DNA of 64,000 bases. Source: a virus. Taxonomy: Duplodnaviria; Heunggongvirae; Uroviricota; Caudoviricetes. Where the stretch lies: IMG/VR virus record IMGVR_UViG_2711768056_000005. One strand, 5' to 3'. This document shows positions 7,272 to 15,615 of the stretch, one piece after another; position 1 is the stretch's first letter; every line of letters starts with the position of its first letter. The position numbers and the translations under genes were made by a program. Below the pieces are notes generated by a model. The model saw only the letters and a program-made list of their open reading frames with translations, had not been told where the DNA came from and made no database searches.

Positions 7272-7634
7272 ATGGCTAAAATCGAGTACCATCGCGATCG
7301 CGGTAATTACCTGGAAATATACGATCATGAATCTCTTAACGATATCAACGATGCGTTATATGAATACTGTGAAAAAATGAGCATCACAGATGCACCTGAT
7401 GCATTTGTCGAGCTACCGGTATATCTCCGCGACATCTATGCAATACGGACGCCGCCCGTATCGGTAATTCACATTGGCTATGTCCGCCTGTCCATCGAAG
7501 AAGATGAAGATCGTTATATCGTGCGCCACTATACATTGGACAGAAAAGAGCTTCCCAATGAATGGAACATGAGTAATTTCTACAACGGTGAATATGGCTT
7601 AAAACCCGCTAAGAATGGCGCGGGCATTGCGTAA
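7272..7634 (+). CDS. Hypothetical protein (120 aa), translationally coupled to the 6687 ORF
   Basis: ATG immediately follows the upstream TGA (TGAATG); acidic protein. Confidence 0.5.
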   Translation: MAKIEYHRDRGNYLEIYDHESLNDINDALYEYCEKMSITDAPDAFVELPVYLRDIYAIRTPPVSVIHIGYVRLSIEEDEDRYIVRHYTLDRKELPNEWNMSNFYNGEYGLKPAKNGAGIA

Positions 7635-7645
7635 TAGCCTAACAA

Positions 7646-7885
7646 CTATTCTGTTTTCTGATATGCTGGATCGTTCCCTTTTGGCAACTGGAGGCTTAAC
7701 TGCCGGTAGTGCCGTAACCGTTCCATGAAATAGGTGCGCAGGTTCTCTGGTTGCTCGCGGGCTACCTGTTCAGCTATGACAGGTATGTTCAATCGCTCTT
7801 TGTACGCCACACCGCTGGCAGCCAGATCAACGTTAACCTTATCCTGTTCTTCCTGACTTTTAGCTGCAATATTCCAGTCGCTCAT
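7646..7885 (-). CDS. hot: Hot, homologue of DNA polymerase III theta subunit (79 aa)
   Basis: Product ...[43 protein letters not shown]... is colinear with E. coli HolE theta as recalled. Confidence 0.8.
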
Positions 7886-7887
7886 AT

Positions 7888-8154
7888 TTAAGGCTCACAT
7901 TTCCAGATGGTATTCTGAACACCCGAACCGGGCGCTAGATGAGGGTTAGCGTTCGCGCTATGCTGATATACTGCTTTAGACTTCCCATATTGCTGACAGG
8001 CTTTATCTGCGGTTTTTTGCAGGCTATCCAGGCCATACCAACCATCTGACTGTATGCTTACCTTTTCACCGTCGTTGTATTGCACCATTGCACACCCAGA
8101 TATAGCCAGTATCGTGCCGACAATAACGCTTTCCCATAAAACTCTATGCAACAT
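7888..8154 (-). CDS. Putative lipoprotein (88 aa from internal ATG)
   Basis: Signal peptide with lipobox-like LAISGC; track ORF begins at a TTG, ATG two codons in. Confidence 0.45.
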
Positions 8155-8155
8155 A

Positions 8156-8189
8156 GACAAAAATCCCCTCTGTGAATTGAGGGGATTTT
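8156..8189 (-). terminator. Rho-independent terminator-like hairpin
   Basis: AATCCCCTC-N8-GAGGGGATT stem followed by TTTTTG on the minus strand, downstream of ORF 8200..8835. Confidence 0.45.
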
Positions 8190-8199
8190 AGCATGGTGA

Positions 8200-8835
8200 T
8201 CAGATATCGGCCTTATTCGGAATTTTATCAGCCACCAGCGGCAATAAAGCCCTGGCCATCTTATGAACCAATAGTGCATCAATAATGCCAAGCGTATGCC
8301 CTGGCTTAATGTTTAATGCCGCCTCAAGGTGACATCTTTCCAGGCCACTTTTCTCGACTTGTTTATGATGATCTGGCGTAATAACGTCGCCCAAAACACG
8401 GCTAATTTTTTCTCGTAATTGCTGGGTGCCAGCACACTTGATCGCTGTATCGTGGAGACGGTTAACCAGTTCGCGATAAACATGCGGCTTAATGCGGATA
8501 CGTTCACCGGTGACGCCCTTTCCTGGCGCTGGCACCGAACTATCCGGATAGTTGCCAGCCTCGTAAGCTACCCGCAGCCAGTGCATGAATGTTTCAGTGG
8601 ACACACAACCACAGTCCACATCGATTTTTCCGCGTTGCTGTTCCAGCCACTGCTCAAAATTCAATCTACACGTATTACTTTCATGTTGCTCTTTTTGTCT
8701 CAAGGCCAGCATCTGCTGGGCTATTTCCAATACTTCATCTGCCGTATATCCAGCACCGTGACCATACATTTCGATACGGGAAATAATCTCTGATATACGC
8801 TCTTCAGTGATTCTGGTCATTTCTTTTTGCGCCAT
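8200..8835 (-). CDS. Hypothetical protein (211 aa)
   Basis: ORF in the coupled minus-strand early block; no recognisable motif. Confidence 0.5.
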   Translation of the reverse strand: MAQKEMTRITEERISEIISRIEMYGHGAGYTADEVLEIAQQMLALRQKEQHESNTCRLNFEQWLEQQRGKIDVDCGCVSTETFMHWLRVAYEAGNYPDSSVPAPGKGVTGERIRIKPHVYRELVNRLHDTAIKCAGTQQLREKISRVLGDVITPDHHKQVEKSGLERCHLEAALNIKPGHTLGIIDALLVHKMARALLPLVADKIPNKADI

Positions 8836-9191
8836 TTCTTTTCACATTCCTTAGTCCATTTTTCAATGTTCATTTTGGCAATATCAGTCATTCCATCACC
8901 TAAGAAATACTTTTTCCGGTATGTCTTGCACTTAAACCACACTACAACAGCCACCAGCCAGAAAATAAAAGGCCATACAGCAATACCAACGACAGCCGCG
9001 ATAAAGCCCAATAGCCATAAATGAAGCTCTCCAACTTCTGTTTCCGGCAATATTCTTAAAGAATTAAACAGCAGGCTGAACGAATGGTCGTATGCATTGG
9101 CAGTATAAGACATGCAATCCATATAATTAAAGTCATAGCCTGCGGCTGCCGCCCATAATGGGCGGTCAAGAAAATGTTTTAGTGTCATCAT
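8817..9191 (-). CDS. Small membrane protein (124 aa) with a Lys-rich C-terminus; AT-rich
   Basis: One long hydrophobic segment (LWLLGFIAAVVGIAVWPFIFWLVAVVVWF) then KCKTYRKKY...KKWRKKK; lower GC than neighbours. Confidence 0.45.
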   Translation of the reverse strand: MMTLKHFLDRPLWAAAAGYDFNYMDCMSYTANAYDHSFSLLFNSLRILPETEVGELHLWLLGFIAAVVGIAVWPFIFWLVAVVVWFKCKTYRKKYFLGDGMTDIAKMNIEKWTKECEKKWRKKK

Positions 9192-9197
9192 ATAAAT

Positions 9198-9491
9198 TTA
9201 AGGTTCAGACCAGTTATCTTCAATAGCAATGCTTAATCTTTGTAGCCATTCTGCTAATTTCAGCATTGCTTCTCTTTCGCTTAAACCACGAGGAAAATCA
9301 TCAAGCGAAATTGTTGGCTTGAATCCCCCGCAATTATCCATTTCAACTGTCAGATTTTGTTCCAGCACGGTATTTCTTACGCGGCTATTGTGCCGGAGCA
9401 AATATACTGAGAGTGATTTATTGGTTTTGTGGTCTAGCTTATATTCGGTAAGTATCATCTGGCTTTTGCCATGATTATTACCTCTCCACAT
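9198..9491 (-). CDS. Hypothetical protein (97 aa from internal ATG); AT-rich
   Basis: Internal ATG at 9491 has RBS GTGAGGT and follows the stop of a 40-aa upstream peptide. Confidence 0.4.
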   Translation of the reverse strand: MWRGNNHGKSQMILTEYKLDHKTNKSLSVYLLRHNSRVRNTVLEQNLTVEMDNCGGFKPTISLDDFPRGLSEREAMLKLAEWLQRLSIAIEDNWSEP

Positions 9492-9498
9492 ACTTACC

Positions 9499-9621
9499 TC
9501 ACTTAATAAAACAACTCCATGCGTAGTTGATGATTTTTTCCCACGTAATATAAATCTGCACTCCGGCAGTAAAACCAAAGCCAACAATTGCTGAAAAAAT
9601 CAAAACATTTACTTTTGACAT
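9499..9621 (-). CDS. Possible 40-aa hydrophobic peptide (below the track length cutoff)
   Basis: MSKVNVLIFSAIVGFGFTAGVQIYITWEKIINYAWSCFIK; stop lies 8 nt before the next ATG. Confidence 0.3.
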   Translation of the reverse strand: MSKVNVLIFSAIVGFGFTAGVQIYITWEKIINYAWSCFIK

Positions 9622-9669
9622 TATAAATTTTCTCTCGGTGTCGTAGGTGATAGCACCATAATTGATAAT

Positions 9670-9903
9670 TTAGTGAGTTAGCAGTTCCATTTTTTTGATG
9701 ATTTCCGCATGAGCATCATCGTTATCAACACTTAGCTCGTTTAATGCTTCTCGCACTACATCAACTTCTTCAGGCTGAAAGAAGTCGTCGCGGTAATCAC
9801 CAAATAGAACCGAAACCAGCCTGCCACCAGCAACATCAAGATTGGCGCTAACAGGTGGCTCTTTGCCATCCTCAAATTCGACTACAAAAGTTAATTTTCC
9901 CAT
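9670..9903 (-). CDS. Hypothetical acidic protein (77 aa)
   Basis: ORF with RBS in the coupled block. Confidence 0.45.
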   Translation of the reverse strand: MGKLTFVVEFEDGKEPPVSANLDVAGGRLVSVLFGDYRDDFFQPEEVDVVREALNELSVDNDDAHAEIIKKMELLTH

Positions 9904-9979
9904 CGTTACCCCCAGAAGATAAAAATAGCGGCAATCGCCATAGCTACGCCTACAATCGCAAATGCTTCAGGCCAGCTTA

Positions 9980-10240
9980 TTACCTCACCTCCAGTCTCCA
10001 TACCGCCTGACCAATCCGGCTGGCATGTGTATCTTTGGATACTGTTCCATCTTTAGCCAGCTCCATAAGAATTTTGCGCAAATCTGCCGAACGCCATTCT
10101 TCATCAGGAAATTCCTTCTCCATTGCCAACCGCAGATTCCAGGTTGCTATCGTGAATGGATATTCCCCGCCGAGAGCTTTCTCTTGCAGGGCAGCACGGG
10201 AACGTATCACCTGCAAAACCTTCTCTTTTACATCCATCAT
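9980..10240 (-). CDS. Hypothetical protein (86 aa from internal ATG)
   Basis: ATG at 10240 preceded by GGAGG; begins 3 nt after the stop of the upstream gene. Confidence 0.45.
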   Translation of the reverse strand: MMDVKEKVLQVIRSRAALQEKALGGEYPFTIATWNLRLAMEKEFPDEEWRSADLRKILMELAKDGTVSKDTHASRIGQAVWRLEVR

Positions 10241-10935
10241 TTTGCCTCCTGCGGCGGTTCTGGTAGCGGCATCCAGTGTGATGGTATCCACGACGCACCA
10301 GGTATTACCCACCCATCATTAGCGTCAGGATGCCCCGGGATGTAAGTCGCCCATTTCATTCGCCAGTCACCTTTCCTGTCAAACTCCCTGGCAACAAGAA
10401 CGGCTGTTTTGGTATCCGGCATTCGCTCACTACAGCTTATCCAACTATCCGGAATTACCGGATAGTTGCCCGACAGCTTGTTCAACTTGTAAGTCTGGCT
10501 TACAGGTTTGGCACCATGAAGCATGGCGTCGCTCCGCTCTATGCCATCCAGCGCGATTCGCAGTGCCTGAATTGTGGTAGAGCTATCGTTTGGGGCTATT
10601 CCATATCGCTCGAATACAGCTAAATGGTTGCGCATAATCTCAGGCGTAAGCTCTTTGTAAGCATAAGCAAGAGGCTCTGATGCATTATCCGGCACAACCG
10701 ACGCAAGCGCGGCAGCATAAACAGGAATAACGTCCACTTGCTCTTTATTGCTTTCATCCGTTAAAGCCCAGAATAATTTCCCGGCCGGATGTTTGAAAAT
10801 ATAAGCAATTGGTTCTGCTTCCAGCGATGCCAGTGCAATTTCATACGACCGTCGCTCAATATTGTCTCGCACGTCCAGGCTGCTGATACGCTCTTTGATT
10901 TCTTTAATCAGTTCTTTGTCGGTTAAAGTGGTCAT
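10237..10935 (-). CDS. Hypothetical protein (232 aa) with a DUF551-like C-terminus
   Basis: C-terminal ...WVIPGASWIPSHWMPLPEPP resembles the conserved WMPLPEPP end of the phage DUF551 family. Confidence 0.5.
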   Translation of the reverse strand: MTTLTDKELIKEIKERISSLDVRDNIERRSYEIALASLEAEPIAYIFKHPAGKLFWALTDESNKEQVDVIPVYAAALASVVPDNASEPLAYAYKELTPEIMRNHLAVFERYGIAPNDSSTTIQALRIALDGIERSDAMLHGAKPVSQTYKLNKLSGNYPVIPDSWISCSERMPDTKTAVLVAREFDRKGDWRMKWATYIPGHPDANDGWVIPGASWIPSHWMPLPEPPQEAK

Positions 10936-14923: not shown

Positions 14924-15010
14924 TTACCCATGCGCGACGATGCCGCCAAAAGTGATAGAGAACAGCCAGAAATAGATCGCGGCCATAATGATTTTGAATG
15001 CCGTGTTCAT
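14924..15010 (-). CDS. Possible 28-aa hydrophobic leader peptide (not in the track)
   Basis: CAGGAGCTGAAAAT-ATG; MNTAFKIIMAAIYFWLFSITFGGIVAHG; first ORF after the operator at 15093. Confidence 0.3.
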   Translation of the reverse strand: MNTAFKIIMAAIYFWLFSITFGGIVAHG

Positions 15011-15092: not shown

Positions 15093-15109
15093 ATATTTAT
15101 TAGAGCAAT
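15093..15109 (-). promoter_or_regulatory. C1 operator match (16/17), overlapping the stop of the HAD phosphatase gene
   Basis: Minus strand reads ATTGCTCTAATAAATAT; identical 17-mer to the site at 34809..34825. Confidence 0.6.
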
Positions 15110-15615
15110 TATTGTTGGTGGAGAAGCGCGTTTTCATACTCCCTGACCATTAACGTAAGTACGCCGTGACTCCTGAAAACACGCGCCACTTCAATCTTAT
15201 CTTCCAGCGCGAACGCGATTTTACTTAGACCAATTTTCTTAAGGAGATCAATCTTTGCTGGGCCGTCATTTCTGTCATCGGTGGCAGGACGCATAGATAG
15301 CAAAGGCTCAGCCCCGTTTGTTACGTACTTCCGCAGCCAGGCTAGTGTTTTATCCCTTGCGATCTCACAGCGCCCGGTTACAAACCAGACCGTGTAAACG
15401 TTAAATAACTGGCGCACCATATCAATAACTGGAGTGATGGGAGTATCGGTGTCACAGGCGAGATTAAACTCGTTCCAGTCCTTTGTTAATGCACCTTTAC
15501 CTGGTGGCGGAAGCAAATGCAGTCTGTCTTCAGTTGCCTCTGATATTGTTCCATCAATATCAACTATGACGATATACGGACGTTCCTGGTGTGCGTGTTT
15601 ATTGAAAATACTCAA
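15109..15615 (-). CDS. HAD-superfamily phosphatase (168 aa); pap-like by position
   Basis: HAD motif I IVIVDIDGTIS near the N-terminus. Confidence 0.65.
   Translation of the reverse strand: MSIFNKHAHQERPYIVIVDIDGTISEATEDRLHLLPPPGKGALTKDWNEFNLACDTDTPITPVIDMVRQLFNVYTVWFVTGRCEIARDKTLAWLRKYVTNGAEPLLSMRPATDDRNDGPAKIDLLKKIGLSKIAFALEDKIEVARVFRSHGVLTLMVREYENALLHQQ

Follow-up and report, generated by a model that had tools for sequence, protein, structure and literature searches.

Three small AT-rich genes of a P1-like phage-plasmid as probable independently exchanged accessory genes of a predicted C1-controlled early operon

Three short open reading frames lying in series in a tailed-phage genome raise the question of whether such close neighbours form one functional system or have merely come to lie side by side. 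The window examined here is a stretch of 64,000 nucleotides (IMG/VR record IMGVR_UViG_2711768056_000005, Caudoviricetes), and the ORFs within it encode proteins of 40, 97 and 124 amino acids (Table 1). A preliminary description of this DNA had read them as a serially coupled three-gene membrane mini-cassette within the early block, markedly more AT-rich than the flanking genes. The ORFs themselves were confirmed, as three serial and tightly spaced frames on the minus strand. Their base composition was also as described, with a GC content of 38.4% for 8817-9625 compared to 47.3% for the whole window (the 1.7th percentile among windows of the same size), and GC3 values of 0.34-0.42 for the three ORFs versus 0.45-0.54 for the downstream genes.

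Table 1. Positions of the three ORFs, their neighbours and the putative control elements in the window.
Feature	Position	Strand	Remarks
hot	7646-7885		Flanks operon
Terminator-like hairpin, 11 pairs then TTTTTGTCT	8160-8189	-	Directly past 211-aa gene
211-aa gene, mosaic	8200-8835	-	C-terminal part resembles P1 PmgT/PmgU; overlaps 124-aa gene
124-aa bitopic inner-membrane protein gene (predicted N-out/C-in, basic C-terminal tail)	8817-9191	-	PHROG 2638
97-aa soluble protein gene	9198-9491	-	ATG start; PHROG 1258; N15 gp44 / phiKO2 gp43 family
40-aa single-TM peptide gene (MSKVNVLIFSAIVGFGFTAGVQIYITWEKIINYAWSCFIK)	9499-9621	-	PHROG 5525
77-aa acidic protein gene	9670-9903	-	Swapped together with 40-aa gene
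Candidate 31-aa hydrophobic ORF	9906-10001	-	Swapped together with 40-aa gene
C1 repressor operator and promoter region equivalent to P1 OpmgT/P1pmgT/P2pmgT	15093-15109	-	1 mismatch to consensus; operon head
pap-like phosphatase	15109-15615		Flanks operon

By sequence comparison the source element is a P1-like (SJ46-type) phage-plasmid. DNA matches at 95-100% identity were found with SJ46, with RCS47 and with over 300 phage-plasmids of E. coli, and the gene order reads pacA-lpa-pdcB-doc-phd-humD-hot ... pap-pmgS. The three ORFs sit in the pap-hot interval, in synteny with SJ46, RCS47 and RefSeq plasmids, while the same interval of reference P1 is filled by different cargo (pmgT-upfO). This interval, which is prone to recombination, is the published low-GC variable region 8 (PMC9603915), and the variable region is non-essential in P1 (PMC10695390). 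Features of region-8 cargo were found at the present locus, namely the pap-hot location, a PpmgT-like control region, low GC and a content that varies between elements. The first three of these are shared with the region-8 cargo of the Punavirus SJ46 and RCS47 types, whereas the likeness to the region-8 cargo of P1 is limited to the PmgT/PmgU resemblance of part of the 211-aa neighbour. Copies with 95-100% identity were observed in hundreds of Escherichia, Salmonella, Shigella and Klebsiella phage-plasmids, and approximately 5% of complete E. coli genomes have these genes. P1-like phage-plasmids are frequently carried by E. coli and Salmonella from clinical and livestock sources, and resistance genes spread via the same variable regions. 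Searches of 7500-10500 against Rfam returned no RNA family at E <= 1, and a repeat search gave only short matches at chance level.

A pattern search for the C1 operator gave 12 matches in the window versus 0.43 expected, and the DNA around the operator at the operon head was near-identical to the annotated P1 OpmgT/P1pmgT/P2pmgT. This near-identity supports an early, C1-repressed assignment for the genes behind it, and the early-block placement in the preliminary description was upheld on these sequence grounds. Taken together, consensus scans and analogy to P1 suggest a minus-strand operon of approximately 7 kb, extending from ~15.09 kb to ~8.16 kb, which would start at a sigma-70 promoter under a C1 operator, the equivalent of P1 PpmgT, and hold the three ORFs in its distal part. 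An operon under such a promoter is expected to be silent in the plasmid prophage and to be switched on early once C1 is lost. The consensus scan found no promoter-like site on the coding strand across the three ORFs, and they would be read from a single polycistronic mRNA with close translational coupling. The stop codon of the 40-aa gene lies 7 nt from the ATG of the 97-aa gene, with a GAGG Shine-Dalgarno sequence beside the stop, and 6 nt separate the 97-aa stop from the 124-aa ATG, here with no obvious Shine-Dalgarno sequence. The 124-aa and 211-aa genes overlap by 19 nt, or by ATGA if the 211-aa gene starts at its second Met. Within the operon, the hairpin of Table 1 is the one terminator-like structure on the coding strand that is well formed, and it probably marks the end of the operon, as a consensus match in a setting where the overall count of terminator-like sites equals the chance expectation. 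Three weaker 6-pair terminator-like sites were also flagged (13638-13621, 9941-9925, 8305-8287).

The three ORFs look like real protein genes, since their alleles are intact, their pN/pS values lie between 0.21 and 0.56, and every one of them has a PHROG match and distant homologues in further phages. The 40-aa peptide has a maximum Kyte-Doolittle hydropathy of 1.83 over 19 residues, which fits one TM segment at approximately residues 6-26, and it matches PHROG 5525 (annotated as unknown function) over 40 of 40 positions with E = 1.2e-24. The ORF was intact in all 11 distinct P1-like alleles, and its pN/pS of 0.56 is a sign of weak purifying selection, measured on few alleles. The preliminary description had stated that this ORF would be missed by standard annotation. 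This held for the PGAP-annotated RefSeq records, as all six inspected had no CDS at the ORF, and the membrane peptide omitted there is now flagged. It did not hold for GenBank SJ46, which annotates the gene as J46_0090, for the epsilon15-like phages, which annotate the homologue, or for PHROG, which includes the family.

These annotation differences lead to another reading of the 40-aa ORF, in which it is an untranslated spacer or part of an extended 97-aa protein of 129 aa (TTG start) or 140 aa. Metagenome gene callers often stretch the 97-aa gene across the ORF to these lengths, PGAP makes no call there, the pN/pS is 0.56, and close alleles differ from one another at all three codon positions. 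Outside the P1-like elements, however, the 97-aa family starts at a conserved Met-Trp-Arg-Gly and has a length of 97-100 aa, and RCS47-type elements keep the 97-aa gene even though the upstream sequence is missing altogether. Homologues of the 40-aa peptide in the epsilon15-like phages EC.W1-9 and phiv142-3 are also 40 aa long (50-53% identity) and share the motif GFGxxAGxxxYI(T/A)WExxINxxWS, so that frame, length and motif are kept in unrelated, GC-richer phages with a different downstream gene. In this comparison amino-acid identity was 49% in-frame versus 20-25% off-frame, with a nucleotide identity of 56%. Given also the end-to-end PHROG match and the GAGG sequence ahead of the 97-aa ATG, we consider a non-coding or extended reading highly improbable. 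A type I toxin of the Hok, Ldr or TisB kind was rejected as an identity for the peptide, with no catalogued RNA matched in Rfam in the interval searched and no promoter-like site of its own; its gene is part of a polycistronic operon, where it is coupled to its downstream neighbour, and does not stand alone.

The 97-aa protein matches PHROG 1258, likewise annotated as unknown function, over 97 of 97 positions (E = 6.4e-49). It is predicted to be soluble because its maximum hydropathy is only 0.21, and the AlphaFold model (pLDDT 79) consists of four beta strands forming a beta-meander and a C-terminal helix. The gene has a pN/pS of 0.21, with all alleles intact, and the family comprises 126 homologue clusters in Enterobacterales prophages, nearly all of 97-100 aa and with the same start Met. 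N15 gp44 and phiKO2 gp43, uncharacterised small proteins of telomere phages, have full-length identities of 56-67% to it, equal size and the same near-invariant C-terminal helix, and PHROG 1258 also occurs in many enterobacterial prophages. The setting in N15 and phiKO2 differs, as the homologue comes after a methyltransferase/gp43 within another operon and no membrane-protein gene adjoins it. Most likely the 97-aa protein would bind a conserved host or defence protein via its near-invariant C-terminal helix.

Membership of PHROG 2638, a third family of unknown function, was assigned to the 124-aa protein with E = 2e-63 over 120 of 120 positions. Its maximum hydropathy is 2.60, and the AlphaFold model (pLDDT 89.8) has one long helix at residues 53-97 holding the sole hydrophobic span (~57-87). 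The charges of +3/-7 before the TM segment and +13/-5 after it predict an N-out/C-in orientation, with a cytoplasmic tail containing 13 K/R in 37 residues and the sequence KKWRKKK. The most conserved part of the protein is the predicted periplasmic N-terminal head of approximately 55 residues (MLTLKHFxDRPxWAAAAGYDFNxxDC at the N-terminus of the family), and not the basic tail. All alleles are intact (pN/pS 0.26), and the family is rare, with 26 representatives among 1.84 billion proteins. The earlier characterization of the three products as a hydrophobic peptide, a soluble protein and a single-pass membrane protein was upheld by these predictions. Downstream, residues 76-201 of the 211-aa protein showed 80% identity to the P1 pmgT/pmgU region by tblastn, and the gene is annotated as a putative morphogenetic protein in RCS47. 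The identical 19-nt overlap was observed with the 124-aa homologue in a Pseudocitrobacter prophage.

The distribution of the genes bears directly on whether they form a unit. Counts of E. coli records gave 312 with the 97-aa gene, 272 with the 124-aa gene and ~205 with the 40-aa gene; approximately one third of the P1-like carriers of the 97-aa and 124-aa genes were without the 40-aa gene, and from these counts ~40 records with the 97-aa gene seem to lack the 124-aa gene. Recombination breakpoints fall at gene boundaries (9497/9498, 9978/9979, 9200/9210). The 40-aa gene was exchanged together with the 77-aa and 31-aa ORFs as a block (9498-9978, from co-occurrence in 80 IMG/VR loci), and this block is absent from RCS47-type elements. 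Within the inspected neighbourhoods of 40-aa, 97-aa and 124-aa homologues outside the P1-like elements, the three families were never neighbours together. A three-gene cassette is therefore not borne out by these separate distributions, gene-boundary breakpoints and lack of joint occurrence outside P1-like elements, and such a mosaic warns against taking the adjacency of genes as a sign that they form a functional system. Our preferred reading, to which we assign a probability of roughly 60%, is that the three are independently exchanged accessory genes in a C1-controlled early operon and not one system, each presumably encoding a dispensable host-directed early protein.

The strongest association was found between the 97-aa and 124-aa genes, for which the preliminary description had proposed the soluble protein as a partner of the membrane proteins. 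In P1-like elements the 124-aa gene was always observed with the 97-aa gene upstream, with a fixed 6-nt spacing in 73 of 77 IMG/VR loci, so that the two may be functionally linked there. SJ46-type and RCS47-type elements exchange the two genes together, with homology running through 8225-9497. Such observations could fit a module in which the 124-aa protein, the 40-aa peptide or both are membrane-damaging toxins or effectors and the 97-aa protein is an antitoxin, chaperone or regulator, with tight coupling fixing the stoichiometry. Four of the 77 loci, however, had an extra gene inserted between the two, and the ~40 records above would hold the 97-aa gene without the other. The 97-aa family is also far wider (126 clusters versus 16), and its inspected non-P1 members in N15, phiKO2 and Proteus phage Isfahan had no adjoining 124-aa partner. 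Conversely, no 124-aa homologue outside P1-like elements was found adjoining a 97-aa homologue, as seen in Yersinia, Klebsiella and Proteus phages and in Pseudocitrobacter and Dryocola prophages. The proposed partnership is thus not supported, and neither PADLOC nor NCBIfam gave a toxin-antitoxin match. A weak resemblance of the TM region to CptA/YgfX (PF07254, E = 0.08) would favour a toxin, but at 13.5 bits it is below the cutoff of 27.3 and confined to the hydrophobic span, and family membership was rejected. The likeness involves this span and the basic juxtamembrane region, whereas CptA/YgfX has two N-terminal TM helices and an adjacent CptB/SdhE-type antitoxin, compared to one central TM helix in the 124-aa protein; no CptB/SdhE-like family was matched among the neighbours in Pfam, NCBIfam or PADLOC. 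On balance a toxin and partner module appears quite unlikely.

Under the preferred reading of separate accessory genes, each protein would work independently, as an early product that is dispensable and directed at the host. We favour an inner-membrane role during early lytic growth for the 124-aa protein and perhaps also for the 40-aa peptide; there the 124-aa protein might exclude superinfecting phage DNA or neutralise a host factor of the envelope or membrane. The superinfection-exclusion proteins T4 Imm and Sp and HK97 gp15 are small early inner-membrane phage proteins. The present proteins are alike in small size, one TM segment, a non-essential region and a predicted early timing, which makes this a functional analogy only, as no sequence or fold similarity to these exclusion proteins was detected. 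In Pfam, NCBIfam and PADLOC neither the three proteins nor their neighbours had a hit above threshold, and PADLOC returned no defence-protein match at E <= 0.1 for the six proteins tested. Sequence and profile searches of the PDB gave no match (best KCNE2, E = 0.64, driven by the TM segment), and no study of the function of these proteins came up in the literature by protein accession, for N15 gp44 / phiKO2 gp43 or for P1 transcriptomics.

Two other roles for the 124-aa protein were weighed against its gene contexts. As a holin-like or lysis-timing protein or an abortive-infection effector, it would cause lesions in the membrane or control the holin of P1. Its length, single TM segment and basic charged C-terminus agree with this but are generic and non-discriminating, and the two consecutive Met codons that begin the window copy are not conserved, because most homologues start ML. 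The gene lies in a C1-controlled early operon with no late promoter and no endolysin nearby, its homologues occur in early replication, recombination or nin modules, and no holin family was matched in Pfam, PHROGs or NCBIfam, which leaves this role very unlikely. The preliminary description had named homology to virion or lysis proteins as evidence against its reading; sequence, profile and fold searches found no lysis, virion, toxin or defence relative for any of the three proteins. The same early-module contexts (exo/methyltransferase, nin and helicase-primase neighbourhoods) could instead suit a membrane tether, in which the basic cytoplasmic helix would tie phage DNA, or complexes for its replication or recombination, to the inner membrane, with phi29 p16.7 as the comparison. 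Homologues lie between exonuclease and primase in a Proteus phage, near exo and methyltransferase in a Yersinia phage and beside NinB in a Klebsiella phage, and the K/R-rich tail would also be suitable. However, it is the predicted periplasmic head and not this tail that is most conserved, no DNA-binding domain was matched, and little weight can be placed on gene context where early regions are mosaic, so we give a tether very little credence.

Another view of the locus, which we regard as unlikely, is that the 97-aa and 124-aa pair, with or without the 40-aa peptide, forms an undescribed early-lytic membrane-directed module, and separately that the 40-aa peptide represents a micropeptide family conserved between P1-type myoviruses and epsilon15-type podoviruses. 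In such a module a periplasmic-headed bitopic protein, for example, might keep competing phages out or disable a host defence bound to the membrane, with its soluble partner tuning this activity, and the micropeptide family could be one that is systematically missed by genome pipelines. A role of any of the three proteins in exclusion, anti-defence or host shutoff would, if established, add to the catalogue of small phage effectors. There is no pointer to a new principle among these findings.

The arrangement resembles the ea/nin-type arrays of lambdoid, P22-like and epsilon15-like phages, which likewise consist of short, packed, overlapping and non-essential early genes with mosaic borders at gene ends. 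These arrays are under lambda CI/N control, whereas the present one belongs to the plasmid prophage of a P1-type myovirus and is controlled by C1. The resemblance extends to gene content: ead/Ea22-like and DUF551 proteins are neighbours in the present element, P22-like phages have 97-aa homologues near EaD, and epsilon15-like phages place the 40-aa homologue right behind ea22/Eaa.

The window is a P1-like (Punavirus, SJ46-type) phage-plasmid. Matches to the 1-kb region at 90-100% identity were found in SJ46, vB_EcoM-813R1 and RCS47 and in 313 complete-genome records of E. coli, nearly all of them plasmids of about 90-100 kb, and the 124-aa gene was observed in 257 PLSDB plasmids from Escherichia, Salmonella, Shigella and Klebsiella. 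[quoted passage not shown] Eight highly variable regions, linked to low GC, have been described in P1-like phage-plasmids, and the pmgT-humD interval is among them (PMC9603915); the pap-hot genes are non-essential in P1 (PMC10695390). The preliminary description had proposed an AT-rich three-gene membrane mini-cassette within an early block. We found real, probably early, AT-rich genes, two of them encoding membrane proteins, but no three-gene unit; the products are catalogued but uncharacterised hypothetical proteins, encoded in a hotspot already known for its mosaicism, and are ordinary in kind. The larger neighbours combine ea22-like, DUF551 and PmgT-like modules in mosaic fashion and gave many partial PHROG matches, and only the C-terminal two thirds of the 211-aa protein are shared with P1 PmgT/PmgU. 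A TnpB/InsQ-family gene was also observed between the terminase (pac) genes and lpa in a close relative, pLH10-b-1-B (locus L001, 404-1579), and was unseen in the other relatives inspected.

Features of the interval and its surroundings, in window coordinates
Feature	Position	Strand	Remark
40-aa gene	9621 to 9499	minus	first in transcription order
97-aa gene	9491 to 9198	minus	second
124-aa gene	9191 to 8817	minus	third
211-aa gene	8835 to 8200	minus	next after 124-aa gene; mosaic neighbour
Larger upstream neighbour	10237-10935	minus	mosaic neighbour
77-aa gene	9670-9903	minus	PHROG 3876
Candidate 31-aa ORF	9906-10001	minus	METGGEVISWPEAFAIVGVAMAIAAIFIFWG
90-aa ORF (88 aa from ATG)	7888-8160	minus	PHROG 7757, unknown function
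28-aa ORF	14924-15010	minus	MNTAFKIIMAAIYFWLFSITFGGIVAHG
C1 operator-like site	15093-15109		1 mismatch
Terminator-like hairpin	8189-8160	minus	just past 211-aa gene
Weaker 6-pair terminator-like sites	13638-13621, 9941-9925, 8305-8287	minus	

The positions first described were exact for all three ORFs. Each matched a PHROG end to end (40 aa, PHROG 5525, E = 1e-24; 97 aa, PHROG 1258, 6e-49; 124 aa, PHROG 2638, 2e-63), all annotated as unknown function. Every distinct allele among the P1-like loci was intact for all three genes, with pN/pS values of 0.21 (97-aa), 0.26 (124-aa) and 0.56 (40-aa), in support of three real genes. Only the 40-aa ORF is open to doubt: PGAP called no such gene in 6 of 6 RefSeq records inspected, and metagenome gene callers often stretch the 97-aa gene over it to give 129 or 140 aa. 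A spurious ORF is nevertheless the less likely reading, and the sequence evidence favours a real gene because the Met-Trp-Arg-Gly start and length (97-100 aa) of the 97-aa protein are conserved in non-P1 family members, RCS47-type elements keep the 97-aa gene in the absence of the upstream sequence, SJ46 annotates the ORF (J46_0090), and epsilon15-like phages annotate a 40-codon homologue. This homologue (50-53% identity, same GFGxxAG...YI(T/A)WE..IN..WS motif) is located after ea22/Eaa and before an unrelated basic protein, and its identity to the ORF was 49% in-frame against 20-25% off-frame and 56% at the nucleotide level.

Between the stop of the 40-aa gene and the ATG of the 97-aa gene lie 7 nt, with a GAGG Shine-Dalgarno adjoining the stop, and 6 nt separate the stop of the 97-aa gene from the ATG of the 124-aa gene; the 124-aa and 211-aa genes overlap by 19 nt, or as ATGA if the latter uses its second Met. 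The GC content of the segment was 38.4% compared with 47.3% for the window (1.7th percentile among equal-sized windows), bearing out its AT-richness, and GC3 across it was 0.34-0.42.

A three-gene cassette was not sustained by the distribution of the genes. Counts within 5,426 complete E. coli genomes were nested, with 312 records containing the 97-aa 5' end, 272 the 124-aa gene and about 205 the 40-aa region. Homology breakpoints coincided with gene ends (9497/9498, 9978/9979, 9200/9210 and about 8717-8726). Block 9498-9978, which carries the 40-aa and 77-aa genes and the 31-aa ORF, was absent from RCS47-type elements. At 9200/9210 an additional gene of ~54 aa is inserted precisely at the junction of the 97-aa and 124-aa genes in some P1-like elements (locus L019, 1094-1258; also L090 and L093). 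The 40-aa gene was almost always accompanied by the 77-aa gene across 80 IMG/VR loci and was not tied specifically to the 97-aa or 124-aa genes. The 97-aa gene is always upstream of the 124-aa gene within P1-like elements, the one residual link among the families; given 90-99% identity, this pairing is best explained by common descent. A toxin/partner pair is a less likely reading. Outside P1-like elements the three families are unlinked.

The 77-aa protein is strongly acidic (7 K/R and 18 D/E), a composition reminiscent of DNA-mimic or anti-restriction proteins, and its gene showed the strongest purifying selection of the neighbourhood (pN/pS 0.07). The candidate 31-aa hydrophobic ORF, found together with the 77-aa and 40-aa genes, shares 22 nt with the end of the upstream 86/110-aa gene and terminates 2 nt ahead of the 77-aa gene; it had no PHROG match and was unannotated in all records inspected.

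The 97-aa family includes N15 gp44 and phiKO2 gp43; further members were observed in P22-like and lambdoid phages, as well as in numerous prophages of Klebsiella, Salmonella and Citrobacter. A set of 1.84 billion proteins held just 26 representatives of the 124-aa family, which is therefore rare. Its members belong to early modules in Yersinia phage P840, Klebsiella phiKp_30 and Proteus phages and also occur in Pseudocitrobacter and Dryocola prophages, and in none of these was a 97-aa homologue found beside them. Both families are present in Proteus phage Isfahan, 6 kb apart on opposite strands. Several homologues appear misnamed in public records (locus L008, 2501-2860; locus L100, 1156-1509 and 7301-7567): 124-aa members as 'conotoxin' (P840) and 'ribonucleotide reductase large subunit' (Isfahan), and 97-aa members as 'portal protein' in Proteus phages.

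In P1 the C1 operator OpmgT and promoters P1pmgT/P2pmgT stand at the head of the interval, and the sequence around the operator-like site in the window is almost identical to that region, so by analogy with P1 the placement in an early block is probably correct. Operator-like sites in the window numbered 12, against 0.43 expected. A consensus scan flagged no minus-strand sigma-70-like site inside the three-gene segment, and the hairpin past the 211-aa gene was the sole well-formed terminator-like one on the coding strand. Directly 3' of the operator/promoter and a GC-rich hairpin is a 28-aa hydrophobic ORF, conserved in reference P1 but unannotated there; it had no PHROG match, and SJ46 has a 'membrane protein' at the equivalent relative position.

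Hydropathy and AlphaFold results agreed with the protein descriptions first given. A single hydrophobic span is present in the 40-aa product. The 97-aa product is soluble and modelled as four antiparallel strands plus a C-terminal helix (pLDDT 79); this helix is near-invariant in the family (DDFPxGLSERESMLKLADWLHRLGVAIEDNWSxP), a pattern typical of surfaces that bind a conserved partner protein. The 124-aa product was modelled with a single long helix (53-97, pLDDT 89.8) bearing the sole TM span, with charges of +3/-7 ahead of it and +13/-5 behind, and is therefore predicted to be N-out/C-in. Its predicted periplasmic N-terminal head of ~30 residues (MLTLKHFxDRPxWAAAAGYDFNxxDC) is the best-conserved part of the family, and a Pro is conserved within the TM helix. 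The basic cytoplasmic tail, ending in KKWRKKK, is only loosely conserved, and a DNA-membrane tether is a less likely role.

No informative similarity for the three proteins was found using Pfam, NCBIfam, PADLOC, PDB sequence and profile searches, or Rfam. Homology to virion or lysis proteins was looked for and not found in the Pfam, NCBIfam, PADLOC and PDB searches, and a holin-like protein is likewise less probable. The sole Pfam hint, CptA_toxin, reached 13.5 bits where the cutoff is 27.3, covered the hydrophobic span only and was rejected on a membership test. We suggest that the three are dispensable, early, host-directed accessory proteins, each acting separately, and give this reading, in its structural and evolutionary aspects, a probability of about 0.6. 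Topology, timing and analogy further suggest, as a tentative and rather unlikely guess, that the inner membrane might be where the 124-aa protein, perhaps together with the 40-aa peptide, acts during early lytic growth, either keeping out superinfecting phage or counteracting a host factor of the membrane or envelope. The 90-aa ORF, carried by only some P1-like elements, directly follows the terminator-like hairpin and lies 2 nt upstream of hot; it has a lipoprotein signal peptide and lipobox (LAISG|C) and could encode a putative Cor/Llp-type exclusion lipoprotein.
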